From Aggregatilineales bacterium (GTDB lineage: Bacteria; Chloroflexota; Anaerolineae; Aggregatilineales; Ch27): 64,000 nucleotides of DNA. A program made the position numbers and the translations under genes. The notes under the pieces were generated by a model. It worked only from the letters and a program-made list of their open reading frames with translations, did no database searches and was not told the DNA's origin. The stretch is taken from assembly GCA_029976025.1 (NCBI GenBank), contig JARKNX010000036.1, positions 70,353-134,352 on the forward strand. Direction: 5' to 3'. Positions 18,297-34,392 of this stretch are shown piece by piece (position 1 is the stretch's first letter; every line of letters starts with the position of its first letter).

Positions 18297-18445
18297 AGAG
18301 GGCGGCAAGCCACCCCAATTATGTCAGGCTGAAAGCCCAGAGCTGAATACAGCCCCTGCCAGCATAGATATGCGTCTCCTCGATATCCTTGAAAAGACTG
18401 AACCTGGGGATGAAACATCCGTGAGCTGCCTATGAGCGAGTGCAT

Positions 18446-19597
18446 TCAGAGCAGGCTTCTGTATGCGTTAGTAACGGCGCTCGCCGCTATCTCAATCTGT
18501 TCAATAGTAGTAAAGCGTCCTACACTCGCTCTCACCGTGCGGAACGCGTCTTCGCGCCCCAGACCCATCGCTTCCAGCACATGAGAGGGGGAGATTGCTC
18601 GAGACGTACAGGCAGCCCCCGTTCCTAACATTACCTCAGGGCAATTCAACAACAGGGCATCAGCGTCTACCTCAGGAAAAGTGATGCTACTGGTATTGGG
18701 AAGGCGCTGGTTCAGGCTGCCATTAATTCGAACGTCGGGCAACTCATGCAGTAATCTGCTCTCAAATAGATCGCGCAGAGACGCCAGTCTTGCTGACTCT
18801 TCGATGAGCTGTGCTGAACTGATGTCACAGGCTTCTCCCAAACCAGCTATAGCAGGGACGTTCAGCGTCCCGGGGCGAAGCCCTCTCTCCTGCCCTCCTC
18901 CAACGAAGACAGGCTCAAGCCGAACCAGGTCAGGATCGCCCCGCACATATAAAGCTCCTATCCCTTTCGGGCCATAGAGCTTATGTCCACTCAGCGAGGC
19001 AAAGTCCACTCCCCACTCAGTGACATTCACCGCAATCTTTCCAACGGTTTGTGCTGCGTCACAATGTACAAGTGCCCCGAATTGATGTGCGATCTCCGCG
19101 ATCTCAGCAACTGGCTGGATAGTGCCTACTTCGTTATTCGCCCCCTGGACAGACACCAGAAAGGTTCTATCGTCGATTGCTTTTTCTGCACTATCGAGTC
19201 GAACGCGCCCGTTATTGTCAACTGGCAGGATGATGACCTCAAAACCTTCCTCCTGCAGCTTCTCACACGGAGCCAATACCGACTTGTGTTCAACTGCCGA
19301 CGTGACGATCCGATTTCTAGCGGGGTTCGGCCGCCTGCCTGCAATGCCCAGGATGGCCAGATTATTACTCTCAGTAGCCCCGGCAGTGAAGACGATCTCC
19401 GCTGGACGTGCTCCGATGAGGGCGGCTACCTTCTCTCGCGCTACTTCCACGTGTTCAGCAGCCAGACGCCCCTGAAGGTGAAGACCGTTTGCCGGATTAC
19501 CGTAGATTTCACGGAAAAACGGCAACATGGCTTCCAGCACCCGGGAATCGCAAGGTGTCGTAGCATTGTAATCCAGATAGACCGCCGCTTGCTTCAT
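18446..19597 (-). CDS. sspA: Cysteine desulfurase (NifS/IscS class V aminotransferase), SspA/DndA-like, last gene of the defence operon
   Basis: 383 aa. YLDYNATTP start, PLP-lysine motif SGHKLYGPKGIGALYVR and catalytic-cysteine loop GAACTSRAISPSHVLEAMG. Its start lies 6 nt after the stop of the BrxL-like gene. Confidence 0.9.
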   Translation of the reverse strand: MKQAAVYLDYNATTPCDSRVLEAMLPFFREIYGNPANGLHLQGRLAAEHVEVAREKVAALIGARPAEIVFTAGATESNNLAILGIAGRRPNPARNRIVTSAVEHKSVLAPCEKLQEEGFEVIILPVDNNGRVRLDSAEKAIDDRTFLVSVQGANNEVGTIQPVAEIAEIAHQFGALVHCDAAQTVGKIAVNVTEWGVDFASLSGHKLYGPKGIGALYVRGDPDLVRLEPVFVGGGQERGLRPGTLNVPAIAGLGEACDISSAQLIEESARLASLRDLFESRLLHELPDVRINGSLNQRLPNTSSITFPEVDADALLLNCPEVMLGTGAACTSRAISPSHVLEAMGLGREDAFRTVRASVGRFTTIEQIEIAASAVTNAYRSLL

Positions 19598-19603
19598 GCC
19601 ATC

Positions 19604-21052
19604 TCAGTCCAGAGTTAGTCGGTAGCTGATCGCACTTTCATATTGTCGATATTCAGAATCGAGACTCTGCAATTGCTCCCAGACAAGCTGCCTGAGATCC
19701 CTGGCGGGTTGCACACAATAGTGTTCAAACTCCTCAGGGGACAGTTCGCCATGAGGAAACTGTAATTTCATCATGCCTGTGGAAATAGCAAGAAGCGCAT
19801 CCTCGTTTCGTTTGTATCTCCGACCGCCAGCGAGATGAACCATTCGAGAGCAATGCTCATCGAGCGATAGATCATCACGGAGGGCCAACAGCGCATCTCC
19901 CAAGAAATCAGACTTTAATCCTGTGCCCACAGCAAAGCATTCGTTACTCAGCTTCCTGATGCGCCAGCCAGGAATAATGCCCCGAATACGATCAAGAAAA
20001 GCTGGTTCCTGAAGAAATTCTGGCAGTTCTCCTACCAGAGGGCTGGCGATTGGCTTTTGATGGGCATCGAGCAAGATATTTGCCAACAACACCAGGCCGC
20101 AGTCACTGGCAGTTTCATGGAGACCGCCTCGAGTGAGGCGGCCATTAGCCAAGTATCCCTTTAGCCCGCCGACGATTTCCTGAGGCTTTTCGAACTTCAG
20201 AGTTTGGACCTCATCCAGTACAACAACCTTATAACGCGCCAGCAGACCCCATTGCCCGCTCGCGTTGTTCACAAAGAGAACTGCTGGAGAGACATTTCCC
20301 CCACTGAGTAAGCGTACACGCGGGCTGATATTCTCATATATATAACTCTTGCCAGTGCCCTTTGGGGCCAGTTCAATCAGATGCATGTTCTTCTGTACTA
20401 CTGGAAGCAACCGACACAGCAACAATGTTTGTTCTTCTTCAGAGAAGCTGTGTGGGTTATATCCCATAGAGTTGAGCAGCAATGATCGCCACTCGCTCAG
20501 TGAGAACTGACATCTTGCTTCCTTATACAGATTCAGATCGACCACTGCCTGCATCGGCTTGAACCCCGCAACGGCTGGGCCTCCGGACGTGTTGACTAAA
20601 TCAACGACTCCCCACAGACCCTGGTTCAGCAGATCTGGATACTGGTTGACCAAACTGTCAGAGATCTGAGCATCGGAGATTTGCAGCAGGCTCAACGCAG
20701 CCAGTCGTTCTTGGCGCTGCCGATTCAACACAACATTGACCTGCACTGACGTCAGAACTCTAACCGTCTCCCCGTTGAGCAAGCGATTCTTGATGAGATT
20801 GGCGTCTTCAGGACGTGGCAGGAAACGATCAGCCCACCGAAGGACGCTCGAAGCATCATCCTGTGAAAGCGGGCCTATGCCTGGCGCGATAGTGTCGAGT
20901 AGCCATTCGGCTACGTAGGCCGGCACACCTCGCTTATCCAGCTGGCTCATCCGCAGGCGGCGTTTATCAATCGCTAAAGCCCCAAAGACCTGCCTGATCT
21001 TGTCTTCCATATCCTGGGCTAACTGAACTGAGGATGTATCGCTCACAGACAT
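19604..21052 (-). CDS. brxL: BrxL-family ATPase (putative Lon-type-protease ATPase family), short form without an evident Lon protease domain
   Basis: 482 aa. Walker A is IELAPKGTGKSYIY and Walker B is KVVVLDEVQTLKF. The N-terminal region VPAYVAEWLLD..ANLIKNRL resembles BrxL. It is adjacent to a PglZ gene. The ~130 aa after the ATPase core are too short for a Lon proteolytic domain and carry no Ser-Lys dyad motif. Confidence 0.75.
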   Translation of the reverse strand: MSVSDTSSVQLAQDMEDKIRQVFGALAIDKRRLRMSQLDKRGVPAYVAEWLLDTIAPGIGPLSQDDASSVLRWADRFLPRPEDANLIKNRLLNGETVRVLTSVQVNVVLNRQRQERLAALSLLQISDAQISDSLVNQYPDLLNQGLWGVVDLVNTSGGPAVAGFKPMQAVVDLNLYKEARCQFSLSEWRSLLLNSMGYNPHSFSEEEQTLLLCRLLPVVQKNMHLIELAPKGTGKSYIYENISPRVRLLSGGNVSPAVLFVNNASGQWGLLARYKVVVLDEVQTLKFEKPQEIVGGLKGYLANGRLTRGGLHETASDCGLVLLANILLDAHQKPIASPLVGELPEFLQEPAFLDRIRGIIPGWRIRKLSNECFAVGTGLKSDFLGDALLALRDDLSLDEHCSRMVHLAGGRRYKRNEDALLAISTGMMKLQFPHGELSPEEFEHYCVQPARDLRQLVWEQLQSLDSEYRQYESAISYRLTLD

Positions 21053-21058
21053 ACTTTC

Positions 21059-23263
21059 TCACAATTCGAGTCCATCAAGAAGCGAAGTGTCACGCGAGTA
21101 CAACTCTTCGCTTTCAAGCTCCATACTCACGCGAATTTCCACACGCTCTCCACTAGGCCAACGCAGATATGCAGTTGCCTTAGAATGCTTGATTTCTTCT
21201 TTCGATGGCCAGAATCGCAATTCAAGGGTTTTGTTTTGTTTGGTGAGAGCGAGAATCTCCCACCCACATTGGAGCGTCTCCGATGATCGCTTTACACCGA
21301 ATTCTATTTCTACAGAATTCAGCACAATCGGGATTTCATCTGAATTGATGATCTCCACGTGCAACGTCCCCGCCTGACCTGCCCTATTTTTACCAGTGAT
21401 TCGTACTTCCACCATGGGGATACGTTGTTCTTTTGGCATAGCATCACGTACCAGGACAATCCAGGGAACTATCACTTCTTCCGGGAACAGTCCGCCATGT
21501 GTATACCATTCTTGCCCTTGTTTTCCGTCATTCATTCGAAATGCTGCCTCATCCAAAATTACTGCAGCATCTTCTGTAAGGCCATAGCTTTCGCCGTGGA
21601 GATACACCACATTGTCTTCAATAGTGTATCCGGCTGCCGGAAACTCCCGTTTGACTTCGCTAGCAGGTCCTGACGCAGCACGGCCGTGCGTTTCCATCCC
21701 CGCGGGAATTGGAATAGATCGCTGCGATGAAGCGAGCAAGCGCCCGTGATCAGTTGTGAGCACCAGCTTTAGGGGAATAGTGACTGGTAACTGTTCCACG
21801 AGTTCAGCGATCTTCTGGGCCACTGTATTCAACTGGCCTTCAACTTCGTGCTTGAGGGAATCATAGTTGTTACGCGCATGATACGTATGATCAGGCTCCT
21901 GAATACGCCAGATAAATAGATCATCAATATGTGCTGTCTGTAGCAACTCATTCGGAGACTTACGTTCCGAGATGTCCACAGCAAGCGGAGGTAGACCCGC
22001 AGCATGAAGCTCCGGCACACCTTTCAACAGTGCTTCCTTCGCAAATCGGGTAATCGTCGGGATTGGCGCAAAGACGAGGCGATCTTCCTGAATCTCCAGA
22101 CGCCTGGTAGCCACCTGCAAAGCCCGAAGAAACTGTCGAGCGTCCGGAAGATGCAATCCGTCCAAAACGATTAACAGTGTCACGAATTCCGTGTCCTGCC
22201 CCCTCAAGAACCCCGTCTCTCGAAAACTAAGGTGTTCTTTGTCTTTCGAATTCAGCGCTCGCCGGTAGAAGTCCAGATACCATGTGGCAAAACACCTGGC
22301 AAGGTCAACGATACGGTGTCGAACCTGAATATTACGGTCATCGCCCTGCTGCCACTCGCGAAGTGGCAGATACTCATTCCTGAACCAGGCCAGGACCTCC
22401 GCGGGCGCTTCCGGCACATCTGAAGGTTCTGGTGGTCGCAACAATCCGCGCAGTTGTTCCCATTGTGACCCTGAGACACCGGGAGCCAGCGTTGCAAGGT
22501 ATCCTTCGGTCAACTGCTGAGGGTTAACCGTAAAATAGTCAAAGGCTACTCCAACCGCGATCTGCTTAAGCTCTGGAGATAGAGGAAGTGCCATTAATTG
22601 CTCAAAGAAATCCCCGTGTGTGTCCACCATAGAGTGCCGCCAAGCGCTTAAGGCTCTGTCACTCCAAGGGGCTGGCACTTTCACCGGAAACTCCTCTAGC
22701 CCATCGATTCGTTGATCTGCCTTGATACCGAGCCAGATGTCAAGCATACTCTGTGCCGACTCAGAATCTGTAGCTTCGTATAAGGGCTTGAGACTCCTCG
22801 ATGCATCTCGCTGCCATCCCTCTGATACCGCCCGGAGAAGCGGTTGCTCCACCTGGTCAGGGGTTTGTAGGTCAAGCCAGAGTAGCCACTCAGCGGCGTG
22901 CTCCAGCGAAGGAGTGCCTGCCCATCGAAAATCCGGATGCAAGGCTTGCAGTATCCCTGGTGCAGAGATAGGACGGCGCAGACTGAAGTATTTACTCTCC
23001 AGGCGGGAGTAAAGGGCGTCAGCCTGATCCTCACTGAGATCAGGAATAGCTGTTAGTATCTCTCTTCGAGGTGAAGGCGCATCCTGAAACCGAAGATGGC
23101 GGCCCCGAAGGAACGTCCTGGCCCACTCACACAGGCGCTGACCACGGATGAACCACCTTCCCTCGCCGTCAACAATCCTGAGAAAACCTACTTCATCCTC
23201 AATCAGTACGTATCCGCCGGGAATCAGAGCATCTCCGTGATAATCGAGCAGGAAGTTCTCCAT
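21059..23263 (-). CDS. pglZ: PglZ domain-containing protein (alkaline-phosphatase-fold)
   Basis: 734 aa. The central region has VTLLIVLDGLHLPDARQF and LKLVLTTDHGRLLAS, the D...T/DHG metal-ligand pattern of PglZ domains. It is flanked by BrxC-like and BrxL-like genes, as in BREX loci. Confidence 0.75.
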   Translation of the reverse strand: MENFLLDYHGDALIPGGYVLIEDEVGFLRIVDGEGRWFIRGQRLCEWARTFLRGRHLRFQDAPSPRREILTAIPDLSEDQADALYSRLESKYFSLRRPISAPGILQALHPDFRWAGTPSLEHAAEWLLWLDLQTPDQVEQPLLRAVSEGWQRDASRSLKPLYEATDSESAQSMLDIWLGIKADQRIDGLEEFPVKVPAPWSDRALSAWRHSMVDTHGDFFEQLMALPLSPELKQIAVGVAFDYFTVNPQQLTEGYLATLAPGVSGSQWEQLRGLLRPPEPSDVPEAPAEVLAWFRNEYLPLREWQQGDDRNIQVRHRIVDLARCFATWYLDFYRRALNSKDKEHLSFRETGFLRGQDTEFVTLLIVLDGLHLPDARQFLRALQVATRRLEIQEDRLVFAPIPTITRFAKEALLKGVPELHAAGLPPLAVDISERKSPNELLQTAHIDDLFIWRIQEPDHTYHARNNYDSLKHEVEGQLNTVAQKIAELVEQLPVTIPLKLVLTTDHGRLLASSQRSIPIPAGMETHGRAASGPASEVKREFPAAGYTIEDNVVYLHGESYGLTEDAAVILDEAAFRMNDGKQGQEWYTHGGLFPEEVIVPWIVLVRDAMPKEQRIPMVEVRITGKNRAGQAGTLHVEIINSDEIPIVLNSVEIEFGVKRSSETLQCGWEILALTKQNKTLELRFWPSKEEIKHSKATAYLRWPSGERVEIRVSMELESEELYSRDTSLLDGLEL

Positions 23264-23266
23264 CGC

Positions 23267-26200
23267 CTAGCTTGCAGCCTCTTTATCCCGCATTTCTTCG
23301 GACATGAGCCGCTGGAGCAAATCCAGACAATCCTGTCGCCTGTCTGTTGATCCCAGGGCCCGGAATAATTCCTCGATCCGGGCGATCTGATCTTGGTCCA
23401 GACATTCCTGCACTCTCGTATGCAGCGCTTTCAGTCGGTCTCGATAGTCCAAAGGTAAGAAGGCTGGCGGACGTTCTAGCTTTCGCTTCAGTTCGCCCGG
23501 CGATGCTTTCCTCCCAAATTCAGATTCACGCTCCTCAAGCCACTGAATAGCGTCTTGCTGCCTGCTTTTCAGTTGATTTGCCTTCTGCTCACGAACCCGA
23601 TCCAACTCCTTCAGATGGTGCCGGCTCAACATCTGCCCATAATGGCTGGACATCTGAGCCAGCACCTTCTCCGCGGCCTCGACATCCGCTGGTGTGTCGG
23701 GGATATGCTTTGCTCCTTCTAGTTCTCTTACGAACTTGCGAAGAGCATCCAAATACTCCAGCGCTTCCTCTAGTTGGTTTTGGAACTCTGTGTCCTGGTA
23801 TCGACTTTGCTGACGCAGGATGGTATCTCGCTCCTCCGATATAGCGGCCAGATCCAGGTTATACGCGCGATCGTTAATGCTCTCCGCATACGCCTCTAAA
23901 ACCCGAATCTCGTCCTGAACCTCACGGAGTTTAGTTTCCTGCAACGATTTAATATCGGGAGATATCACCTCGATCTCCTGCAGGCGGGTCTCATAGCGGC
24001 GAAGCTCTGCCAGGCCGGCTCTGGTATTCATCACATCGATTTCATTGCGGATGAACGCCTCGCTCTCCTTGGCCTTCAGAATATCTGCCCGCTTATTCAG
24101 CTTACCCTGGATCTCGGCGACCTCCGCCGCGAGTGAAGTCAAGCCCTGTTGCTCCAATTGCTTCTTCAGGCCCGCCAGATCCCGGCGGAAGCTACCTGCC
24201 TGATCGCTGTCGGTCAGTCCGTCTACCCTCAAGAAAAGTCTGCGGAGGGCCTGTTCAAGCGCCGTGTTCAGGTGTATCTCGATCTCGTTGGGGGCCGACT
24301 GAGTGACATGCACCTGGTTTCCGACGGGTAGATTCCGCAGCTTGTCACGCAGCTTGAGCAGGTTGGCGATGTCCCGCTCGCTGTCAAGTTGTCGCAAGAC
24401 ATTGCCGGCCTCACGGTCATATTCTTGTGCTTCTCTGAGAGCCTTCTCCAATCTGTCAACAGCTCTTGATGCCCGTTGGACAATATCTGGAGATTGGTTG
24501 TCAAGGGCGGCGAACTCTTCTAGATTCTGTAGAGCCGCCTGGGCTTCTTCCTGAGTGAACAACTCATCCTTGTTGATTTTGCGGATGATCTCCTGTGCTT
24601 CGCGTTGGGCGGCGTCAGGATCGCGCCGTGTGATTGTCAAAGGCGTGCGGCAAGCCCAGTCGAGAAAACCCCGGGATGTTTTAGTCGTCTCGATCTGCCG
24701 CTCCAATTGGTTAAGTGTTATATACTGTCCCCAGGCGCTGAGCCGCAACTCGTTCCGGAAATAGCCAATCCAGCCACATAGCAGCAAGGTTGCCGTGTTG
24801 TAGTCAAAGCCATAGGGAGGATTGAGCAAGGTCGGAACAATCACCGCGACCCTGCCGTCCTTCACACCAGGTTCGAAAGTGCGGTTGAGCAGCTTCCAGG
24901 CTTCCGAGAGTTTCATCGATGTTGGCTGTTGCAGAGCGTAGTCTCGCACCGACAACAGACCCCACTTCCGGGGAGGGGAGAGATACTTCTCGCACAAATC
25001 TCTGGATACAGAATCCATGCCATTAAAGGCCCCCTCTACACGGTCGTAGATGAGATTCTTGGCTACCGTTTTGACTGCGGTACGCAGCCTATTTTGTCCC
25101 CTGACCTGGACAGCGGAATACTGTGTGAAGAACTCAGGCGGTCGTATCGGGTACGCATACTCATACAACGCCTTAAGCACATGTTTAATAGGCCGCTCTG
25201 ACAGAGTAGCGACCACCGTTCGATATGCCTTTGGCACAACGAATTCGGAAGAGTCGCGACGTATCTCCCATACATTTTCATAGTCACCACGAAGTCGCTT
25301 TAATGCCTTGTGGAGCGCTATCCGAGTTCGCTGAACCTCGAGCTCATACGTCTGTTGCCCAACTTCCTTTATTAGATCTTTGTCCCTGCCAACTGCCTCA
25401 AGCGCCTGATAACGCCGATACAGCTCCTTCATCTCCGGTACGGTATCCCTCGGAATCATTACGATAACTGGCAGCGGCGGATCCTGAAGCCCCACCGCAG
25501 CTTCCAGAATATCCTGAGCCTGTTCGCGCAAATCTTCGCGAGCAGCATCATCGAGAGTCACCAGCCACAACACTGCGCCGCGGATTCCATCTGATAGCCC
25601 GCTATCAGGGGATAAGCTGAATAGTGGTAGCACAGAAATGGGTGCGTCGGGGATGATTATGTGCTCCTCAGCCGCCCAATCTGATGCATGTCCCCACTCA
25701 ATTTCCAGCGGAATACTGCCAAATTTGGGATCCTCTCGGAGCCATCTGTTGAGTCCGTTGATATAGGCGCCCGGATCAAATTCTGTCGCCTCAAGCTGTT
25801 CCTGAACCGCTTTTTCAAGCCGCCGGGGATCAGCTCCAACCGGGAGAAAACCGTTGATACGTTGAATAGAGTCATAACGCGTGACTCCATTCCGACTCAG
25901 GTCCTTCAATACCTCCCGGATCGTCTTCTCATCTGAACCGCACATGGATGCCAGCAGCTCAGTCTGCTTCTCCCCTGCGGCTGAAAGACGGGCGATCTCC
26001 TGAAGGAGGAGGGCCTTCAACACGGCCCGCTGTATTTCAGTAACATTTTCGCCAAAAATCTGTTCGAGGTCGCGCTGGGCTTTGTCGTATGCAGTGTATA
26101 GGTTTCCGGCGTCTCCCGCCAGACGACGCTCGAAATAGTCAACCAGTGCGACAGGTAGAACCCAGTTGACACGGCCATCCCTTTGCGCCGGTTCATTAGC

Positions 26201-27538: not shown

Positions 27539-27552
27539 GATCCCCCACCTCG

Positions 27553-28035
27553 CTAATCGGAATAAGACCCAACCAGGCGGCTATCATGTTCCAGTGCCGC
27601 CCACAGCCTGTCATCAGGCAGTAGCTCTGTCGCGGTCTCTGGAACAGCCACTACCAGAGCACGGGAACGATACGGCATCCCGTCAAAAAGGCCCCGCCAT
27701 ACCTCCTGGCGCTCATCACGCTTCAGCCCTGCCAGCAACAGGTCTACGTTGAAGATAAGGGCGCAATCCGTCTTGCCGCTGCTACTGGCTATAGCGTCTA
27801 ACGCCTCCAACACCTTTTCAGATGTCAGCCGGACAAACCGCGTCCCGGCAGGGAGTCGTTCCAGGATGACATCCCGCACATCGATCGCCTCGATCCCCAG
27901 TCGCGCCGCAACATCCAACTCGCGGCCAACATGTCCAGGGGGCATCCGCCAGACCCCGACACGGGTCCGCAGCGTCGGTCGACGCAGCAGTACGATAAGC
28001 TCCCTGACGGGCTTGAGAGGATCAGGCTGTTCCAT
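27553..28035 (-). CDS. Unknown 160-aa protein (possibly a BREX accessory, BrxB/BrxF-like position)
   Basis: ATG at 28035 overlaps the upstream gene by 14 nt, and the stop lies 12 nt before the brxC-like RBS/start. There is no canonical Walker A (IASSSGKTD lacks the first glycine). The motif CALIFNVDLLLAGLKRDERQEVWRGLF was not recognised. Confidence 0.5.
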   Translation of the reverse strand: MEQPDPLKPVRELIVLLRRPTLRTRVGVWRMPPGHVGRELDVAARLGIEAIDVRDVILERLPAGTRFVRLTSEKVLEALDAIASSSGKTDCALIFNVDLLLAGLKRDERQEVWRGLFDGMPYRSRALVVAVPETATELLPDDRLWAALEHDSRLVGSYSD

Positions 28036-28876
28036 AGAGCTTCTCTAACAAGGGTCCCGTTTCCTGCCGCAGCAGCACGACCTGCTCCGGCGGAGCAACC
28101 CGATAGACATCAACATAGTGTTCACCCTGAAGCACACGCAGTACTTCGTTAAACTCCCGACGCCCCAACAAGAATAACGGAGCAAACCCGCCTGGCTCCT
28201 GCAACGAGTCCAGGGTCACAGTCAGGCGTCCTTCGAACTGCGCTGCCCAATAATCGAGGAGCGCGTACGCGACGGCCCATACAGGCGGGGGCACAGGCTC
28301 CATAACCCGGTAACGCTCGCCATCCGCACTCAGAATACTCAGCTTGCCAAGCGCGTCTGACTTAGTGTACGTTCCCAGGAACACGGTCGCCGTGCTGCGC
28401 ACCGTTCGTTCGGCAAGGCTGCGGCCTTCAGTTTCCTCTATAAATTCACCCAGATGCTGACTGATCTCGCCTGCTGTGAACTCTCGCCCCACGTAAAAAT
28501 AGGTGTTCACCAGATCGTGCCAGAAGGCCGGTCCGGGGCCATGTGGCGCGCTAAGATAATAGTGCATCAGCCACTGTGTGCCGTGCTGTTCCAGGAGGGG
28601 ATCATGGGCCAGACTCATTCGGCCAAAATCAGTGAGCTGGCGATCAAAATCAAGCAGCCCCGCACCCATTGCGTAACGAGGCATGGACTCGGCATATATG
28701 GAGCCGAGAGACGTATTCTGTCTGATCGTCTCCTTATTCAGCTCTCCCTCACTACTGGTGCTGATCTGTTCTGCAAGCTCCAGTACCTGTATCACAGCGG
28801 GCCGAATTAGCGAGAATGTGCGGTGAAAGGAAAATCCGGGTCTACCCTCCTGTTTGGAGTTCTTTCTCTGTTCCAA
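28022..28876 (-). CDS. Divergent DUF4007-like protein (second SspB-like paralog)
   Basis: 284 aa, TTG start behind AGGGGAAGAG. FSFHRTFSLIRP parallels FGGHEKFVFRQGW of the first DUF4007 gene, and HGTQWLMHYYLSAPHGP parallels IGTLWLLHWQLVSGP. Lengths are similar. Confidence 0.55.
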   Translation of the reverse strand: MEQRKNSKQEGRPGFSFHRTFSLIRPAVIQVLELAEQISTSSEGELNKETIRQNTSLGSIYAESMPRYAMGAGLLDFDRQLTDFGRMSLAHDPLLEQHGTQWLMHYYLSAPHGPGPAFWHDLVNTYFYVGREFTAGEISQHLGEFIEETEGRSLAERTVRSTATVFLGTYTKSDALGKLSILSADGERYRVMEPVPPPVWAVAYALLDYWAAQFEGRLTVTLDSLQEPGGFAPLFLLGRREFNEVLRVLQGEHYVDVYRVAPPEQVVLLRQETGPLLEKLYGTA

Positions 28877-28891
28877 TTCTCTTCCCCTAAC

Positions 28892-29731
28892 TTAGAGATG
28901 ACATATCAGGCAACTATCATCGTCGTCCATTGCATCTAGTTCTAGACCCAAAGTCTGAATAAGCGTCTGCTGTGGTTTATGCCTGCTCGACGATCGTAGC
29001 TGGAATTCTTGATGTTCTTTTTTCACTTGCTCGATCCTAAGGGGTTCTTGCAACTCCTGCAGACTTTCTCTTGAAACCCAGGTATATCGCTCACCAGTTT
29101 CGGGATCTTCTCGTTCGTACGCCATAGCCTGCATGTAGAGATCAGGATGATTTTCTAACAGGCCAATCCATTCAATACGTTGCTGAAAGAAGCAGAAATA
29201 GCAGCCAGAGCGAGATCGCCAGTTATAGTATTCTGGTAGACCAAGTCCGCTCTCATCCAGAATCCTTAGCACATCTTCCTTGGCGATTCCGGCTTCAACA
29301 AATGGATAGCGCGGTACTATGTTTGGTTTGCTTGAGATATATCCTTTACGATTAGGTTCGTCAGCTCGTATCCCGATGTAGCTATAACAGAGATCCTCCC
29401 CTATATATTTCTCAAAAGGCTTGATCTTCAGATATTCGGTGCACCATCTAACTTTCGGAGATGGTAGAAATCCCCGGCGCATTTGCAAAAGTTCGTCGAA
29501 CCCTTTTCCTTCATGTTTGAGATAGACAATGGGCTTATTGAGGTAGGCTTCAAGACGATTCAAATATTCGTAGGTCTCCGCGAGCTCCTTCTCTGTATCG
29601 CAGAAGACGTATTCCAGATCAGTAATCTTGTCGCGCAGGTAGATTGCTAAGGCGGTGCTATCCTTGCCGCCAGAGAGGGAAACGATGTGTCGGGCAGGCT
29701 TGCTGCCGGCGGGATGCTGAGATGGGGACAT
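28892..29731 (-). CDS. sspD: PAPS reductase / PP-loop ATP pyrophosphatase family protein (SspD / BrxP-like)
   Basis: 279 aa. PP-loop VSLSGGKDSTALAIYL. Cysteine motifs are RWCTEYLK, SGCYFCFF and the C-terminal CLICHL. Sampled lines are markedly AT-richer than the flanking genes. Confidence 0.9.
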   Translation of the reverse strand: MSPSQHPAGSKPARHIVSLSGGKDSTALAIYLRDKITDLEYVFCDTEKELAETYEYLNRLEAYLNKPIVYLKHEGKGFDELLQMRRGFLPSPKVRWCTEYLKIKPFEKYIGEDLCYSYIGIRADEPNRKGYISSKPNIVPRYPFVEAGIAKEDVLRILDESGLGLPEYYNWRSRSGCYFCFFQQRIEWIGLLENHPDLYMQAMAYEREDPETGERYTWVSRESLQELQEPLRIEQVKKEHQEFQLRSSSRHKPQQTLIQTLGLELDAMDDDDSCLICHL

Positions 29732-29768
29732 TGAGTTAGCTTCCTATAAATCTGGCTATATGGACACT

Positions 29769-32700
29769 TTACTTTCTGCGGAGTAACGCACGTAAGGCAG
29801 CACGAACTACCCGCTGATTCTTATTGTAGTATGGTTGAAGGATATCCGCCACCTGCGAGCTCAAGAGATCGGTAAGAGCCTGTTCTTCGGATGTCAACAG
29901 GGCGTCACCGTCGGCACTCAGGTGTTCAGACTGGAACAGCCTCCCAAGCGTTTGAGCATATGCGGGGAACCGATCCACGTCGGTATCGGCCCACGTGCGC
30001 AATGGTCGGGAAGCCGCGAAAGCCAGCACGCTATCGACGGAGCCTTGCAGGTCAGGGGCGCCCACAGCCCGCTGCAACATCGGCAGGAGTCTCGGGTGGG
30101 TGACATAGTCGGCCATGACCTCGGCTGCGGCTATAAGCTGCCGCCATCCCGCCTCCTCGCCCGGCAGGCCACAAGCGGCCAGCAGCTCATCCCTCGCCCA
30201 GGCGCGCAATCGGGGCGTTGCCTCGCTCAGGGTTTGCAAGGCATCGTTGAGACGGTCAAAGAACAGAGTCGTCTGTTCGGGTTCTGCCTCCTGATCCCCG
30301 AAGGGCGGCAAGTTCAGCGCCGCTGGCAAATCGTTGAATAACAGTTGCTCCGGTGAATGCGCACGCTCCATCGCCGTACGTACGCGCAGGGCGTGGTCAG
30401 GCAGGCGCTGTGTCCGCCAGGCATATTCTGGTAGCGCTTTCACCTGCCGCAAAAGCTCACGCACAACTGGCATTACAGCAACCTCAACGCCCAGATTGTG
30501 CGCGAAACGCTCCAGGACGGTGCGACGAGGTCCGACCAGGCGACAACCAGCCAGCCCGAAAAGATCCGGGCGCCGCAACAACACCTCCCAGTCAGCGATG
30601 CCTGGCTCCGGCAGCAGCGATCCCTCACGGTAGAACGTCATCTCAGCCTGGTGTACCAGATAGAACGCACAGAGCAAGACGGGCAGGACACCGTCGCTTA
30701 TGCCGTAAGGCGGCGCCTTCAGCCGCCTGAATAGCTCTTCCGTCGAACGTATCTCAACAGGGGCGGCGAAGATATAGTCAGCAATTGCATCCCATACCGG
30801 GCCTAAGCCCAATGAGTCTGCTGCAGCGGGCGCGAGGAAACGCCATTCGCCAGAGGCATCCTGTCGGTGGAGACCTCCCGCATGGAGCAGGCTCTCATAC
30901 ATACTCCGTTCCGGGGGGTAACCTTCAATGCCCAGGGTCGGCTCGGACGATCGGCTGAGCATGGCCTCGATCAAATTACGGCGAGCAGCAGCAGCCTGCG
31001 AGGAAAGGGCGCGGCGGTTGAGCAGTTCGTTCCACACCCGGGGGGTCGCCTTATAGATGACATCGCATACTGTGGATAGATAGGAAGTCAGATTCCGCCC
31101 CACCTGGCCTGTGACGTCCACACCACAATGATACCAGCGGCAGGCAGCCGATCGGGTCAACTGGTGCGGGCCGAAAGCCTCATCCAGGTGTCGCCGGATC
31201 AGTGTCTCCACCGCGTCAATGCGCGCCCGCCACTCCTGGCGTGCAACAGTATCATCGCGCAGCTCTGGCGTCTGCTCATAGACCCACTGAAGGGCATCCA
31301 GCTCATGTAACAACTCGGTGAGTCGCGGGATCGGGTGTGCGATGCCGATCACGATATCTGAGCGGGCCTGTAGCGAGGCCTCCCTCGCCCATTCGGCGAG
31401 CTGGTATTCATCCGCTGTAGTGAGAGGCAGGCAAAGGACGACGACACCGCTCGCCTGTTCCGGCTGAGTGAGCAGTTCATGCCGGTCTGTACGGACGTCA
31501 GCGTAACGCACATCGAAGAAGCGGGTCGTGCCACTCTGGTAACTGTGCCGCCGGGCTACAAGTGGACGCGGCGGCAGATATCTGTGCAGCACCTCTACTG
31601 AGCTGGTAATTCCGCCAAGGTGTTGGTGAGCTTGCTGAAGGCGCTCTTCAATATCAACATCGCTGCCCTGCCAGATAACGTAGGTATGGTTGAACCGCCG
31701 GTAAACCAGCATCGAACGCTTGCAGAGCGCTTCGAGCGCCTGGCGGATCTCTTTCTTGCGATAGCTCGATCCGCCTAAAGCTACCAGAAGCGCTTCCTCC
31801 GTTGCCTGAAGATGGCTGGTCTCTCCCAGCCAGTTGAGAAGGCCAACGCTCTTAAATATGGCGGCTTCCAGAGGCGTGAGGAGCGTGGTGCTGTTAAGGC
31901 GATCGAGCGTTTCGGCGAGGATCCGCCCGCGTCCAGAAGCGTAGAGCCGTCCCTGGAAGTTGGCTGCCACGTAGTCGAACAAATCAGCGAGGCCGACGAA
32001 ATCAGGTGTCTGATGCTGCTGAATAAACTCCTGAAAGCCCTTCGGTTCATAGGAGGTGAGATAGGCAAAGACCGAGCGCTCATTCTGAGCCAGACGCCGG
32101 AAGATCAACGGCAGCGCGACCAGGGTGGTCGGGTGCAGCGGGTAGGTGCGTTCGGCTAAATCGATAAACTCGCCATCGTGCATTCCAGGCGGGCGCCACC
32201 CGCTTGTTGCGGTCAGTTGAGCGTAATTGCGGAGCAGGGGTGTCACATCCTGCGGCATCTCGCCCTTATGAGTGATTGCGCGCGCCAGCAAATGAAGCTG
32301 TTGAACAGGTGGTTCCTGGAAAGGGATATCCTCAAATCGGCCCTGAACTTTGGCCCACTCCTGCTGTGTCAGGCTGTCAAGGAACACTGCATAACGTTCA
32401 AACGCCTGATGCAGTACTCCGATTATGACAAGCGGGTGTTCCGTGCTACGGTTGGCGAATTCAGCAAGCTCCTGAAGGAAATAGACGTCTGCCTCATCAG
32501 GATGTGCGGCCGCGAACTCGAGGGGTTTGCCCAGTTCATCGACGACCAGCAGGATGCCGCGATATTCTTCTTCGGCAATAACTTCCAGCAGGCGGGCTAA
32601 TCTATGTAAAAATGCCCTGCTTGTCTCTGGAGCAGCTTTCGCCATTACCTCGGCCAGTTTCTTAGCAGGCACCCCCTCGGCCTCCAGACGGCGCACCGCG

Positions 32701-33128
32701 TGGTGCAGCCCATCGGCCAGACACTGCTGTAGTGATGCGCGATAACCCGTTATTGGGATGGGGAAGAAGCCCCGGCTTCCATCCAGTTGGGTTTCTACGA
32801 CTTCGAGCGCAAGCAAAGGATCAGCCTGCTGCAGTGTATGTATCGTTGTAGCGTGATCTGCTTGGCCCCGCCCCAGTAGATTCAGCAAAAACAAGCTGAA
32901 GTACGATTTGCCGGATCCGTATGGACCGGTCAGCGTCCAGGCGCGGGTCTTGCGCCTGTTGTCTAGCCCCGACAGGATACGCCCCAGGCTGAGAAGAGCC
33001 TGGGAGGTGAGCATATAACCTTGAATAAGCCCGGCAGACTGCAGATCGCTATCAAGTCGGATAGCCCGTATAGCGGTTTGCCGGATCTCCACCAGCGAAT
33101 CCAGGGAAGTAGAAGAGGTTTCATTCAT
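29769..33128 (-). CDS. sspC: SspC-like giant P-loop ATPase (BrxC/DUF499-type paralog)
   Basis: About 1119 aa from the ATG at 33128. That ATG forms an ATGAATGA overlap with the upstream DUF4007 stop, whereas the ORF track starts at 33155. Walker A is LTGPYGSGKSYFSLFLLNLL and Walker B is ILLVVDELGKPLEF. There is a YPLHPTT motif. The gene sits between DUF4007 and PAPS reductase, as in sspB-sspC-sspD. Confidence 0.75.
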   Translation of the reverse strand: MNETSSTSLDSLVEIRQTAIRAIRLDSDLQSAGLIQGYMLTSQALLSLGRILSGLDNRRKTRAWTLTGPYGSGKSYFSLFLLNLLGRGQADHATTIHTLQQADPLLALEVVETQLDGSRGFFPIPITGYRASLQQCLADGLHHAVRRLEAEGVPAKKLAEVMAKAAPETSRAFLHRLARLLEVIAEEEYRGILLVVDELGKPLEFAAAHPDEADVYFLQELAEFANRSTEHPLVIIGVLHQAFERYAVFLDSLTQQEWAKVQGRFEDIPFQEPPVQQLHLLARAITHKGEMPQDVTPLLRNYAQLTATSGWRPPGMHDGEFIDLAERTYPLHPTTLVALPLIFRRLAQNERSVFAYLTSYEPKGFQEFIQQHQTPDFVGLADLFDYVAANFQGRLYASGRGRILAETLDRLNSTTLLTPLEAAIFKSVGLLNWLGETSHLQATEEALLVALGGSSYRKKEIRQALEALCKRSMLVYRRFNHTYVIWQGSDVDIEERLQQAHQHLGGITSSVEVLHRYLPPRPLVARRHSYQSGTTRFFDVRYADVRTDRHELLTQPEQASGVVVLCLPLTTADEYQLAEWAREASLQARSDIVIGIAHPIPRLTELLHELDALQWVYEQTPELRDDTVARQEWRARIDAVETLIRRHLDEAFGPHQLTRSAACRWYHCGVDVTGQVGRNLTSYLSTVCDVIYKATPRVWNELLNRRALSSQAAAARRNLIEAMLSRSSEPTLGIEGYPPERSMYESLLHAGGLHRQDASGEWRFLAPAAADSLGLGPVWDAIADYIFAAPVEIRSTEELFRRLKAPPYGISDGVLPVLLCAFYLVHQAEMTFYREGSLLPEPGIADWEVLLRRPDLFGLAGCRLVGPRRTVLERFAHNLGVEVAVMPVVRELLRQVKALPEYAWRTQRLPDHALRVRTAMERAHSPEQLLFNDLPAALNLPPFGDQEAEPEQTTLFFDRLNDALQTLSEATPRLRAWARDELLAACGLPGEEAGWRQLIAAAEVMADYVTHPRLLPMLQRAVGAPDLQGSVDSVLAFAASRPLRTWADTDVDRFPAYAQTLGRLFQSEHLSADGDALLTSEEQALTDLLSSQVADILQPYYNKNQRVVRAALRALLRRK

Positions 33129-34053
33129 AGTAGGATCGCAACAAAGCCAGCGCATGCTGTGGCGCGTCGGAGAGATGGAAGCTATGCAAATAGAGTTGTC
33201 GGAGTCCTGCTGTCTCCTGCAAGCGGATGCTTCCTGACGTCAGCTCCTCTAGATCTTCCAGATAGGCCACCACGCTATTTTCATCGAGCTTAAAAGCCTG
33301 TCCCGGGCTTCCGGGATGGTAAATGCACTCATCAACCGCGACGGTGCGCCTATGCCGGGCAATATCCGACAGAAAGTATATCAGAGCGTAGCCGAAAATA
33401 TGCACCGGCAAAAGAGGTTTGGGGCCAATTGTGAACGTGAAAAGGCGATCTTCTCTCGTCGGTCGTATCAGCCCCAGATCAACTAATGGACAGTCCAAAC
33501 TATCGTCGAAGAGTCCGGTACCTCTGGTTTTGACAGTAACATAGGTCCGAAGGCACACATCCACCTCTCGATCAACCATCTGGGGGGTTGTCCGAACGCC
33601 TTCCAGCGCCAGTTGCCGACTGACGAACTCGGTTAACCGTTGCCTGGAGAATTCGCGGTCGAGAAACATGTTGAAGACCAGCCACCATACAAAACTATAT
33701 GGGCCCGAAACAAGTTGCCAGTGGAGCAACCACAAGGTTCCAATATCCTCCAGATACGGGTCGCCCTGCTCATTACCAAACAAAAGATTCCCCAAATGAG
33801 TAGGCTGCAACGCAGTTCTAGGTCCGGCGGGCGCGATTTCAAGGATGCCAGTAGCCAGACACCAATGGCGTATAGACCTAACCATGTTCTTGCCAACACC
33901 CAGACTTACCAGAGCATCATCACGAGTGAATATAGCTGGATCCTGTGCAACGAGATCCACTCCTTTTTTCAGCCAGCCCTGGCGGAACACGAATTTCTCA
34001 TGTCCTCCGAAAACCGAACGTTTGTGGTCCGCGGCTACAGGGAATATCGTCAC
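33121..34053 (-). CDS. sspB: DUF4007 family protein (SspB-like), first gene of the defence operon
   Basis: 310 aa, GTG start with AGGAG 8 nt upstream. The N-terminal FGGHEKFVFRQGWLKKGVDLV matches the F.GHE.F..R.GWLKK signature of DUF4007/SspB. Confidence 0.75.
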   Translation of the reverse strand: MTIFPVAADHKRSVFGGHEKFVFRQGWLKKGVDLVAQDPAIFTRDDALVSLGVGKNMVRSIRHWCLATGILEIAPAGPRTALQPTHLGNLLFGNEQGDPYLEDIGTLWLLHWQLVSGPYSFVWWLVFNMFLDREFSRQRLTEFVSRQLALEGVRTTPQMVDREVDVCLRTYVTVKTRGTGLFDDSLDCPLVDLGLIRPTREDRLFTFTIGPKPLLPVHIFGYALIYFLSDIARHRRTVAVDECIYHPGSPGQAFKLDENSVVAYLEDLEELTSGSIRLQETAGLRQLYLHSFHLSDAPQHALALLRSYYE

Positions 34054-34143
34054 AGATCAGTCTCCTGCTTAAGATAAGGTCAGCATCTCTTAGATTAGCA
34101 TGAGGTACGGCTGAAAACCATCCAGACCCAGTTGTCGTAGGGT

Positions 34144-34189
34144 AAGTTCATAATGGTCTTGCCCCGCTTTGATAGACGGTAAAAATGTC
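34144..34189 (+). repeat. Right copy of the imperfect ~46-bp direct repeat bracketing the defence operon
   Basis: aagttcataatggtcttgccccgctttgatagacggtaaaaatgtc lies 91 nt upstream of the operon's first start codon. See 18251..18296. Confidence 0.6.
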
Positions 34190-34392
34190 TAGACCCGTGA
34201 CGGAACGGTTCTGTGGAGCAAGTTGCCAAAGCTGTCGCTCAGGACATCCAGGAATTTGCGGCGGGAATTGATCAGGCGACCTTTCGCTGATCCAGAGCAC
34301 GGTGATGCGCGAGGCACACGATTCAAAGCTACTTTCAGAACGCTATCAAATAAGGAAAATTAACAACGGATACAGCGGTGGCCCGTTCCTAA

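Follow-up and report, generated by a model that had tools for sequence, protein, structure and literature searches.

A nine-gene cassette of Ssp-type and BREX-type genes: a candidate phosphorothioate-based restriction-modification system

The operon and its Ssp genes

The window, by which we mean the whole 64,000-nt stretch of DNA analysed, carries nine intact minus-strand genes at 18446–34053 in its ORF listing. They encode, in order, SspB, SspC, SspD, a second DUF4007 protein, a 160-aa protein, a 1423-aa ATPase, PglZ, a short BrxL and SspA/DndA, and the junctions from g1 to g9 measure -8, +37, +15, -14, +14, +3, +6 and +6 nt. The original prediction, made from the sequence, had described these genes as one tight unit with gaps of -14 to +37 nt; gene content, tightness, the exact positions of the nine ORFs and the gap range were all reproduced. 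The features are as follows.

34054–34829, minus strand: intergenic stretch of 776 nt ahead of g1, where the operon promoter presumably lies
33121–34053, minus strand: g1, SspB (DUF4007), 310 aa, GTG start
29769–33128, minus strand: g2, SspC, P-loop ATPase of the type-4 BrxC type (DUF6079), 1119 aa
28892–29731, minus strand: g3, SspD, PAPS-reductase/PP-loop sulfurtransferase, 279 aa
28022–28876, minus strand: g4, SspB', divergent DUF4007 paralogue of g1 in the brxA position, 284 aa, TTG start
27553–28035, minus strand: g5, occupying the brxB position, inactive P-loop/AAA+-like fold, 160 aa
23267–27538, minus strand: g6, SspC', ORC/Cdc6-type AAA+ ATPase with a BrxC fold, 1423 aa
21059–23263, minus strand: g7, PglZ, alkaline-phosphatase superfamily, divergent subfamily, 734 aa
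19604–21052, minus strand: g8, short-form BrxL, 482 aa
18446–19597, minus strand: g9, cysteine desulfurase of the SspA/DndA type, 383 aa
18299–18316, minus strand: terminator-like hairpin with a T-run about 130 nt past the g9 stop, tentative end of the operon

The hairpin is weak evidence for the operon end, since 14 terminator-like sites were seen against a shuffled expectation of 12.8. The upstream region contains no credible ORF (a 141-aa ORF had no Pfam match), no Rfam family and no promoter-like site, and counts of promoter-like sites across 18000–35000 were not above chance. The neighbours of the cassette in the window are sugar-transport and Dak genes, with no obvious defence island.

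Profile searches placed seven of the nine proteins in the families that had been predicted for them, while g5 and g6 matched no family model. The g1 protein matched Pfam DUF4007 (2.3e-79) and PADLOC SspB (8e-85); 47 of its residues are at least 95% conserved among 45 aligned orthologues, and AGGAG stands 8 nt before its GTG start. The g2 protein matched PADLOC SspC (E=0, 1047 bits), and also the PADLOC BrxC model PDLC02478 (2e-263) and Pfam DUF6079 (4.6e-6). Its longest ORF spans 29769–33155, and the public gene call is the 1119-aa form starting at 33128. The homologue of type-4 BrxC is SspC itself. The g3 protein matched PADLOC SspD (5e-110, 366 bits) and Pfam PAPS_reduct (1.5e-10), but the PADLOC BrxP model at just 2e-8 (30 bits), and g9 matched Pfam Aminotran_5 (1.3e-85) as well as PADLOC DndA (1.3e-145) and SspA (1.5e-144). 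In the orthologue alignments, the writer genes keep every catalytic motif, including Walker A (GPYGSGKS) and Walker B (DE206–207) in g2, and the PP-loop SGGKDS, Cys97, Cys177/180 and Cys274/277 in g3.

The second half of the cassette

The g4 protein matched Pfam DUF4007 (9.4e-16) and aligned with g1 at 29% identity over 116 aa (BLASTP, E 4e-7). Comparison of the g4 and SspB families with hhalign extended over the full length (probability 99.7%, E 1.9e-26), and g4 is accordingly a full-length SspB paralogue, newly recognised here. It retains only 17 near-invariant residues, none of them in the first 56 aa, against 47 in g1.

No sequence match to g6 was found in Pfam, PADLOC (including its SspC and BrxC models), NCBIfam or the PDB. 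The label “BrxC-like”, which the 1423-aa protein had received in the original prediction, comes from profile-profile and fold comparison, and both back it. The g6 and SspC families aligned over 803 columns (hhalign, probability 99.8%, E 9.3e-28). An AF2 model of residues 1–970 (pLDDT 87.7) retrieved Acinetobacter BREX-1 BrxC as all of its top six Foldseek matches in the PDB (E 8.6e-8 to 2.8e-4). When the g6 profile was compared with one sequence of each, SspC gave E 4.6e-7 and E. coli BrxC E 0.013; a family profile was used on the SspC side only, the BrxC side being a single sequence. Residues G84, G86, K87 and S88 of Walker A and D269 and E270 of Walker B are invariant. The C-terminal helical tail of about 450 aa varies in length through helical-repeat insertions, whereas SspC has no such tail. 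These comparisons show g6 to be a full-length SspC paralogue with a BrxC fold, also newly recognised here.

The g5 protein had no family match in Pfam, PADLOC or NCBIfam, but it was found in all 44 complete loci, and its homologues form 232 clusters at 50% identity, mostly of 150–165 aa with a few fragments and two longer outliers. Its AF2 model (pLDDT 90.3) shows a five-stranded alpha/beta fold without Walker A, and the best Foldseek matches in the PDB were AAA+ proteins (Vps4, NSF, RuvB, ORC/Cdc6; E about 4e-3, TM 0.44). An hhalign comparison with E. coli BrxB gave no sequence link (probability 0.3%), and the BrxB structures 9nv3 and 9zll_E, both present in the PDB, fell outside the top 50 matches. 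We regard g5 as a small conserved protein with a predicted inactive P-loop-like fold in the BrxB slot, homology to BrxB being unproven.

The g7 protein matched the PADLOC PglZ model PDLC02549 over residues 12–730 (1e-111). Its Pfam PglZ match (0.002) is below threshold, and it lies far under the cutoffs of NCBIfam BREX_PglZ_1 to _4 (20 bits against a cutoff of 140 for BREX_PglZ_4). Catalytic-type residues D368, T403, T405, D458, H462, D505, H506 and H589 are conserved in the orthologue alignment, and 77 of 80 homologues measure about 710–740 aa, two of the other three being truncated. The g8 protein matched Pfam BrxL_N (1e-21) and BrxL_ATPase (9e-92), the match stopping at residue 471 of 482. 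It passed the TIGR02688 cutoff (481 bits against 329) but not that of the long-form TIGR02653 (215 against 628). Walker A (GTGKS) and Walker B (DE280–281) are conserved among orthologues, and the protein is predicted to consist of an N-terminal DNA-binding region and an MCM-type AAA+ domain, without a Lon-like C-terminal domain. Type-4 BREX has likewise been described with short-form BrxL (PMC12839542).

The second half of the cassette keeps the type 1 BREX order brxA-brxB-brxC-[pglX]-pglZ-brxL, with the methyltransferase slot empty and with sspBCD and sspA on either side. As predicted, no homologue of a methyltransferase, PglX, SspE, SspFGH or DndFGH was found in the operon with Pfam, PADLOC, NCBIfam and further homology searches, nor did the flank searches reveal PglX or these Ssp and Dnd proteins. 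No PT-binding domain was recognised in g4–g8.

Conservation as a unit

The same gene order recurs widely: g1–g8 are colinear in 44 species-representative genomes from at least eight phyla, and cyanobacterial relatives were present in the homologue survey. Among the cultured bacteria that carry it are Levilinea saccharolytica KIBI-1, Hymenobacter glacialis and Fibrella aquatica. Median junctions across the 44 loci range from -14 to +37 nt. The distribution is patchy and flanks differ from genome to genome, no flanking family being common to more than four loci. Colinear order in 44 genomes without a conserved flanking gene indicates that the cassette is one unit, not a chance island. The position of the cysteine desulfurase after the BREX-like genes, highlighted in the original prediction, is also conserved, g9 adjoining brxL in 33 of the 44 complete loci; the presence of such a gene in the BREX-4 neighbourhood had already been reported for 56% of type-4 taxa (PMC12839542).

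The g5, g6 and g7 families are essentially confined to the cassette context among the fetched loci, L001–L003 and three g7 loci. The g7 contexts inspected (P0382, P0386 and the window copy) agree with the cassette as far as the contigs extend. Pairwise identities correlate strongly within the arms (g1-g2 0.90, g6-g7 0.87, g6-g8 0.85, g4-g6 0.80) and less strongly between them (rho 0.52–0.77). The fastest-evolving members are g4, g6 and g7, with mean identities of 31–36%, against 61–62% for SspD and BrxL. At one locus (L069), the g4-g5-g6 trio accompanies a PglW-like NERD-kinase, with sspBCD undetected in 8.6 kb upstream and without a PAPS reductase; at another (L074), g4 and g6 accompany NERD/UvrD and SNF2-like helicases, and no g5 homologue was found even by profile search. 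These companions suggest that g4–g6 may act as a modular reader.

Proposed mechanism and known systems

On balance, we favor the reading that all nine genes belong to a single horizontally mobile PT-based BREX-type restriction-modification cassette, in which an SspABCD writer is paired with SspB', g5, SspC', PglZ and BrxL restricting unmarked DNA. As expected from family membership, g9 would take sulfur from cysteine, g3 would activate and transfer it, and g1, a DUF4007 DNA-binding protein/nickase, would choose the site together with the g2 ATPase and place single-strand PT on host DNA. For the reader/effector arm, the reconstruction draws on co-evolution and gene order as well as on paralogy and fold. 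The diverged duplicates of the DNA-binding and ATPase subunits of the writer, g4 and g6, may form with g5 a scanning scaffold like BrxA/BrxB/BrxC. This scaffold would recruit PglZ, probably acting as the nuclease/phosphodiesterase effector, together with the ring-forming ATPase short BrxL, to block replication of DNA without PT. In type 1 BREX, BrxC binds BrxB:PglZ (PMC13326643), and the brxC C-terminus and brxL are required for restriction only (PMC12707154). However, BrxB, BrxC and PglZ of that system are required for modification too (PMC12707154), so a clean writer/reader split is not guaranteed here. The failure to delete brxP in B. salyersiae (PMC12914056) would fit restriction of the host's own DNA when it is unmarked.

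That same dual role of type 1 BrxB, BrxC and PglZ in methylation and restriction, together with the need for type-4 BrxC in PT formation (PMC12914056), could mean that g4 and g6 serve as an additional module for writing or specificity. SspB' and SspC' would then borrow SspD and SspA in trans and place PT at a second motif, with PglZ and BrxL as sole effectors guided by both ATPase complexes. Both proteins are true full-length paralogues, and their Walker motifs are intact. We nevertheless consider this arrangement unlikely, because the conserved block at the SspB N-terminus is missing from g4, which also has the fewer near-invariant residues given above, g6 is missed by the PADLOC SspC and BrxC models and carries a tail not found in SspC, and the L069 trio sits with other effectors without a PAPS reductase. 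Furthermore, g4 and g6 co-vary more with PglZ/BrxL (0.74–0.87) than with SspD (0.52–0.58).

The locus might instead hold two independent neighbours, an orphan SspABCD modification system and a BREX-like system that lacks a methyltransferase and follows its own logic. Yuan et al. speak of “gene islands” and caution that adjacent systems may act independently (PMC12914056), 84% of sspBCD loci have no known restriction partner (PMC8092258), and the g4–g6 unit occurs without detectable sspBCD in L069. This seems improbable, since the order is kept in all 44 complete loci, from many phyla, and sspD and g4 are a median 18 nt apart, the BREX-like genes are bracketed by Ssp genes wherever sspA lies beyond brxL, and there is neither another modification gene nor a conserved flank. 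The confinement of g5–g7 to the cassette and the co-variation of identities across the arms argue in the same direction, and without any self mark a BREX-like arm would either poison its host or be blind.

We give a similarly low rank to a role of PT as a licensing signal, with host PT activating the effector arm, rather than as a protective mark. SspE, the best-studied Ssp partner, is PT-stimulated, and PT-free mutants are unharmed (PMC8092258); all PT systems modify only a minority of motif sites, which fits simple protection by a mark poorly (PMC12914056). In contrast, the effector genes here are of the BREX type, and the known BREX systems leave modified DNA alone; SspFGH and DndFGH target DNA without the modification (PMC8092258), brxP could not be deleted in B. 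salyersiae, and neither a DUF262/SspE-like nor a sulfur-binding domain turned up. That the PT system is chiefly epigenetic or DNA-metabolic and takes no part in excluding phages or plasmids is very improbable: PT reportedly influences redox biology and transcription in certain hosts, and the cassette lies outside any obvious defence island, but PglZ and BrxL are known from defence systems only, the patchy spread over at least eight phyla with flanks differing in every genome is typical of a mobile defence cassette, and g4, g6 and g7 evolve fast.

The PT-based BREX-type reading is only partly new, since publications from 2024–2026 already contain both the PT-BREX idea and this layout of genes. 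The proposal that PT rather than methylation is the self-mark is plausible; as a novelty it is outdated, PT being the accepted reading of the BREX type 4 mark (PMC12839542). Type 4 BREX had also been thought not to be experimentally dissected, but its modification has been dissected in Bacteroides salyersiae, where BrxP and BrxC make PT, brxZ and brxL are dispensable for it, and BrxP (an SspD-SspB fusion), BrxC (an SspC homologue) and a cysteine desulfurase suffice (PMC12914056). For anti-phage activity of canonical type 4 BREX, we found no report in the literature consulted. In 40 strains, 7 of them Cyanobacteria and 3 Deinococcota, Yuan et al. (PMC12914056; Nat Commun 2026, first posted as a preprint in 2024) report islands of the “sspBCDB-brxCZL type”, with the same series of sspB, sspC, sspD, a second sspB-like gene, brxC, brxZ (pglZ) and brxL. 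The type is named and treated as an island there, not described experimentally as a subtype, and we judge the likeness from the label, which includes neither the 160-aa gene nor the cysteine desulfurase at the end. Of the two genes predicted to be on no published list, the 160-aa gene is such a gene and the second DUF4007 gene is not. New here are the paralogy of g4/g6 to SspB/SspC, the BrxC fold of g6 and the conservation at the level of the cassette. A “fusion of two modules”, as first proposed, understates the kinship of the halves, SspC being the type-4 BrxC homologue and g4/g6 SspB/SspC paralogues; with such a second ATPase and second DUF4007 protein, the cassette resembles the outcome of duplication and divergence inside a single system.

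Compared with SspABCD-SspE and SspABCD-SspFGH, the cassette shares all four modification genes with strong matches, and they are expected to work similarly; SspE, F, G and H are absent, and the partner is the PglZ/BrxL set with the paralogous SspB'/SspC'. The order g4-g5-g6-g7-g8 mirrors that of BREX type 1, the g6 model matches solved BrxC, DUF4007 has been described as BrxA-like, and the inactive P-loop fold of g5 parallels BrxB, described as an inactive STAND NTPase. Unlike type 1, the cassette lacks PglX, a sequence link between g5 and BrxB and a Lon-like domain in BrxL, and g6 is nearer to SspC than to E. coli BrxC in the single-sequence comparison. With BREX type 4 (brxP-brxC-pglZ-brxL, with or without a cysteine desulfurase), it shares PAPS-reductase and DUF4007 chemistry, a DUF6079/SspC-type BrxC, PglZ, a short BrxL without a Lon domain, the absence of PglX and a nearby cysteine desulfurase. 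It differs in that BrxP is split into SspD and SspB (30 bits for the BrxP model against 366 for SspD), in the added SspB'/g5/SspC' trio, in a PglZ that misses BREX_PglZ_4, and in an inactive P-loop module that is a free-standing gene rather than fused to the PglZ N-terminus as in 64% of type-4 taxa. The locus is an intact copy of a widespread cassette, a good specimen rather than a new kind of system.

The nine-gene cassette and its surroundings

All nine minus-strand ORFs of the original prediction are intact between 18446 and 34053, with the coordinates it had claimed (ORF listing). From g1 to g9, the junctions are -8, +37, +15, -14, +14, +3, +6, and +6 nt; these values take the 1119-aa form of g2, as in the public gene call. 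The start codon of g1 is GTG, with AGGAG located 8 nt upstream. The nine-gene cassette looks functional, since the lengths of all nine genes are orthologue-like.

Table. Genes of the cassette (18446-34053, minus strand, g1 to g9) and its flanks
g1, SspB: Pfam DUF4007 2e-79; PADLOC SspB 8e-85
g2, SspC: PADLOC SspC E=0, 1047 bits; PADLOC BrxC PDLC02478 2e-263, full length; Pfam DUF6079 weak, 4.6e-6
g3, SspD: PADLOC SspD 5e-110, 365.6 bits; PADLOC BrxP just 2.3e-8, 30.7 bits
g4, SspB' (second DUF4007 protein): Pfam DUF4007 weak, 9e-16
g5, 160-aa protein
g6, SspC' (1423-aa ATPase)
g7, PglZ: PADLOC PDLC02549 1e-111, full length; below Pfam cutoff
g8, BrxL: BrxL_N and BrxL_ATPase, ending at residue 471 of 482; TIGR02688 481 bits, cutoff 329
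g9, SspA/DndA cysteine desulfurase: PADLOC SspA 1.5e-144, DndA 1.3e-145; Aminotran_5 1.3e-85
13140-18187, flank on the 13-18 kb side: convergent ABC sugar-transporter operon
34830-39416, opposite flank: divergent Dak2 gene at 34830

Profile-HMM searches (Pfam, PADLOC, NCBIfam) placed g1-g4 and g7-g9 in the families claimed for them, and gave no match for g5 or g6 at E up to 10 with 32 and 23 orthologues, respectively. The SspABCD modification module is complete, with g9, g1, g2, and g3 as SspA, SspB, SspC, and SspD. Catalytic signatures, examined in 45 orthologues of g1-g4 and g6-g8, are conserved: in g3, the PP-loop SGGKDS together with five cysteines; in g2, g6, and g8, both Walker motifs (A and B); and in g7, the alkaline-phosphatase-type residues D368, T403, T405, D458, H462, D505, H506, and H589. 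None of the four NCBIfam models for BREX PglZ subtypes recognised g7 (BREX_PglZ_4, 20 bits vs a cutoff of 140). Its PglZ subfamily gave 80 matches, all but three of ~710-740 aa, and occurs in cassette context in the three loci inspected. The g8 protein is a short BrxL, in which an N-terminal region is joined to an MCM-type AAA+ domain and the Lon-like C-terminal domain is missing.

The original prediction described a module free of methyltransferase and of any SspE-, SspFGH-, or DndFGH-like effector, and searches with Pfam, PADLOC, and NCBIfam found no hidden methyltransferase or phosphorothioate (PT)-dependent nuclease in the nine proteins. PglX is absent from them, and no methyltransferase is conserved in the flanks of the 44 complete homologous loci described below. 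PADLOC, whose library may lack such models, gave no match of the nine proteins to SspE (DUF262/DUF1524), SspFGH, or DndFGH, and nothing beyond the Ssp/Dnd modification and BREX families.

The neighbours of the cassette are housekeeping-type genes rather than a defence island; across the two flanks, they encode a DUF6259 protein, a solute-binding protein, two ABC permeases, Dak2, and an ABC ATPase, among others. Its GC content is 0.51-0.56, except for 0.61 across sspC, which is lower than that of the 34-46 kb side (0.585-0.64) and comparable to that of the 1-18 kb side. The 776-nt gap between g1 and the Dak2 gene (34054-34829) contains no credible ORF, Rfam match, or promoter call, and no tRNA or Rfam element was found in the window. 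Scans for promoter-like and terminator-like sites gave counts not above chance; a hairpin and T-run at 18316-18299 could represent the operon end.

Conservation of the cassette and the relationships of g4, g5, and g6

A genome scan with a g6 profile yielded 76 loci, which were annotated with the nine window proteins as probes and a g5 profile. This survey showed that the cassette order recurs: g1-g8 are colinear on one strand in 44 species-representative genomes, with median junctions of -14 to +37 nt, and in 33 of the 44, g9 is the next gene after brxL. The g5 gene is present in 44/44 complete loci. Most hosts of complete loci are Chloroflexota, including the isolate Levilinea saccharolytica; the others are Armatimonadota, Acidobacteriota, Verrucomicrobiota, Planctomycetota, Bacteroidota (Hymenobacter, Fibrella, Adhaeribacter), and one Desulfuromonadaceae MAG. 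Partial or variant loci also occur in WOR-3 and Cyanobacteria, and contig fragments in Omnitrophota and Caldisericales. The closest relatives in the genome scan were Anaerolineae MAGs.

Any one flanking gene family was common to at most 4 of the 44 loci. Since the flanks are not shared, the conserved unit extends from sspB to brxL or sspA and conceals no regulator, nuclease, or methyltransferase. A search across the 44 loci for a tenth conserved gene, whether regulator or effector, found none. Two homologous loci, L002 and L003, carry a small HTH_17 gene upstream of sspB that is not conserved elsewhere. Pairwise identities co-vary among all genes (Spearman 0.52-0.90), most strongly within two blocks, g1-g2 (0.90) and g4/g6/g7/g8 (0.74-0.87). 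SspD and BrxL evolve slowly, with a mean identity of 61-62%, and g4, g6, and g7 evolve fast (31-36%). These observations speak for a cassette conserved as one unit.

The g4 protein is an SspB paralogue over its full length (BLASTP E 4e-7; hhalign probability 99.7%, E 1.9e-26). It is much less constrained than g1, with 17 near-invariant residues, none in the first 56 aa, vs 47 in g1.

Searches of g6 against PDB sequences, with a single sequence and with a profile, returned coiled-coil noise only. Its family comprises at least 365 full-length proteins of ~1400 aa, in which GxGKS and DE are invariant. A profile of 23 homologues matched the SspC of the window with a probability of 92.6%, and hhalign of the g6 family against the SspC family gave a probability of 99.8% (E 9.3e-28, 803 columns; g6 3-963, SspC 17-871). 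The AF2 model of residues 1-970 has a pLDDT of 87.7, and its six best Foldseek PDB matches are Acinetobacter BREX-1 BrxC chains (9zll, 9zdx, 9zn5; E 8.6e-8 to 2.8e-4, TMt 0.37-0.55), followed by ORC/Cdc6; hhalign with E. coli BrxC gave a probability of 3% (E 0.013). The SspC-family match and the top structural matches bear out the earlier "BrxC-like" label of this 1423-aa protein. By profile and model, g6 is a diverged SspC paralogue with a predicted BrxC fold. Its last ~450 residues (window:23267-24600) form helices with a high content of E, R, L, and Q. Among orthologues (P0032, P0072, P0120), this tail ranges from ~450 to ~900 aa and grows through extra helical repeat units inserted at 1325 and 1382 (window numbering). 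Long variants of 1670-1870 aa were considered as carriers of a hidden enzyme domain, and their extra 255-342 aa proved to be more helical repeats.

The AF2 model of g5 is confident (pLDDT 90.3) and shows a five-stranded alpha/beta P-loop-NTPase-like domain without Walker A and without the C-terminal helical bundle. Its nearest PDB structures are AAA+ proteins, with weak Foldseek scores (E ~4e-3, TM 0.44). A scan of 1.84 billion representatives found g5 homologues in 232 clusters. Most of these are free-standing proteins 150-165 aa long; some are fragments, and two outliers are longer. Identity with BrxB was not supported: 32 orthologues gave no DUF1788 match, hhalign with E. coli BrxB gave a probability of 0.3%, and the solved BrxB chains, although present in the PDB, fell outside the Foldseek top 50. 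An origin as a fragment of g2, g6, g7, or g8 was rejected (hhalign probability <0.5% each). We therefore retain for g5 that it is, as modeled, an inactive P-loop-like fold in the BrxB position, and nothing more than that.

The genome scan also revealed variant loci. In L069:8618-17522 (Spirulina sp. CCY15215), g4-g5-g6 is followed by a 968-aa NERD and Ser/Thr-kinase protein (PADLOC PglW 1.9e-74) replacing PglZ/BrxL; no sspBCD was detected in the 8.6 kb upstream of the trio. This locus is possibly a PglW-coupled variant of the reader module. L074:9029-23137 (a Pyrinomonadaceae MAG) contains g4 and a 1698-aa g6, with no g5 detected and an SspD gene 8 kb upstream. After g6 come proteins of 345 aa, 537 aa (weak DrmE_C), 578 aa (NERD and UvrD-like helicase), and 1161 aa (DEAD/Helicase_C, SNF2-like), which look like a DISARM-like effector set replacing PglZ/BrxL. 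In L073:7280-8656 and L075:8015-9412 (the cyanobacteria Spirulina subsalsa and Limnoraphis robusta), a 458-465-aa protein just upstream of g6, in the usual place of g4, has a Cas9-HNH-like segment (PADLOC Cas9 models, 1e-5 to 6e-7 over ~70-90 aa); similarity to g4 was not detected.

L061:8507-13594 (an Acidobacteriota MAG) has a rearranged order, with g4, g5, a 440-aa g6-like N-terminal ORF, a 490-aa SspC-like ORF, and SspD, without PglZ/BrxL; it could be a locus in decay or the product of recombination between the paralogous ATPases. L076-L079 (Bacillota: Desulfitobacteriia, Cellulosilyticum, Clostridium chromiireducens) match the g6 pattern weakly and are organised differently. They encode a long SspD-like protein (544-582 aa; none detected in L077), SspB, and SspC, in this order, with SspA after SspC in L076-L078. 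No PglZ/BrxL was detected in these four loci, and the L079 contig stops inside SspC.

A proposed two-arm model and its alternatives

A writer/reader model with two arms appears to be the best-supported reading. In the writer arm, SspA, SspD, SspB, and SspC would write PT on host DNA, as suggested by strong family membership and validated homologous systems. The reader scaffold would consist of g4, g5, and g6, which are BrxA/BrxB/BrxC-like and may have been duplicated from the DNA-binding and ATPase subunits of the writer. This scaffold would target PglZ and BrxL to PT-free DNA. We propose the reader/effector arm (g4-g8) because of the paralogy, the BrxC fold, the BREX-1-like gene order, the block-wise co-evolution, the fast evolution, and the rare relatives L069 and L074.

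We tentatively suggest that the cassette is a natural separation-of-function BREX. An ancestral DUF4007/BrxC pair, both writer and reader, may have been duplicated; SspB/SspC would have stayed the PT writer, and g4/g6 with the g5 adaptor would have become a reader scaffold coupling PT status to PglZ/BrxL, with PglW-like or helicase effectors taking their place in the rare relatives.

That g4 and g6, as paralogues of writer subunits, provide a second writer specificity seems improbable to us; they co-vary in identity more with PglZ and BrxL than with SspD. Two independent neighbouring systems are a still poorer prospect: Yuan et al. caution that systems side by side may be independent (PMC12914056), and here all genes co-vary and the order recurs. 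An SspE-like, PT-activated mode of action has about the same slim chance, the nine proteins having no PADLOC match to SspE. A non-defence epigenetic role of this PglZ- and BrxL-containing cassette is very improbable.

In type 1 BREX, the same proteins serve modification and restriction, which partly hampers working out how marked and unmarked DNA are discriminated and what BrxC, BrxB, PglZ, and BrxL do. The apparent split of writing and reading between paralogues would permit clean genetics, with each arm deleted separately, as well as biochemistry of a BrxC-like ATPase freed from writing. If the separation-of-function reading is true, the restriction-specific element would be the long helical tail of g6, with its variable length, and BREX-like systems would have a general route to self/non-self discrimination in which a duplicated writer gives rise to a reader. 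The cassette is widespread: it occurs in no fewer than 44 species-level genomes, and the g5 marker forms 232 clusters. As Levilinea, Hymenobacter, Fibrella, and Adhaeribacter are carriers in culture, both PT chemistry and phage exclusion can be tested directly.

Comparison with known systems

The original prediction held that type 4 BREX had not been dissected experimentally, a statement overtaken by PT genetics in B. salyersiae (Yuan et al., PMC12914056; preprint June 2024). In that work, BrxP corresponds to SspD fused to SspB, and BrxC is homologous to SspC; PT depends on brxC, and the pair of brxP and brxC suffices together with a cysteine desulfurase. Both brxZ and brxL are dispensable, and a brxP deletion was not obtained. 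A 2026 NAR survey describes type 4 BREX as PT-based and DUF4007 as BrxA-like, and makes no mention of a second BrxC/DUF4007 pair. Among type-4 taxa, it reports a cysteine desulfurase in 56% and, in 64%, a PglZ whose N-terminus is fused to an iSTAND; the type-4 BrxL is described as having no C-terminal extension (PMC12839542).

The cassette resembles BREX type 4 in its DUF6079/SspC-type BrxC (g2), its short BrxL (g8), and the lack of PglX. The type 4 BrxP is a PAPS reductase, usually fused to DUF4007; the cassette has the corresponding function in separate SspD-type and SspB-type genes. It differs from type 4 in that BrxP is split, PglZ falls outside the type-4 model, and the core has three additional genes. 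We predict that it operates as a type 4 (PT) BREX does; its Ssp writer is complete.

Unlike BREX type 1, the cassette has neither PglX nor a long BrxL. The type 1 BrxC is a DUF499-type ORC/Cdc6 AAA+ ATPase. The type 1 BrxB is described as an "inactive STAND" (PMC12839542), with which the predicted fold and the position of g5 agree, whereas hhalign and the Foldseek ranking did not link g5 to BrxB. In type 1, BrxC binds BrxB:PglZ (PMC13326643), and the brxC C-terminus and brxL are needed for restriction only (PMC12707154). The cassette differs from Ssp defence systems in lacking SspE and SspFGH, the latter being unrelated to its proteins. Approximately 84% of sspBCD loci are without SspE or SspFGH (PMC8092258), and the cassette would provide one missing restriction partner for these.

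The label "sspBCDB-brxCZL" given by Yuan et al. to islands in 40 strains matches g1-g2-g3-g4-(g5)-g6-g7-g8 in gene order. Since this gene series is already in print, the locus is of a known, barely described kind. PT-BREX as such will not surprise a specialist; it is the apparent natural split that makes an open BREX question experimentally tractable. New here are the evidence for a single conserved unit, the SspB'/SspC' paralogy with the predicted BrxC fold of g6, the recognition of g5 as a ninth component present in every complete locus, and the testable writer/reader hypothesis.
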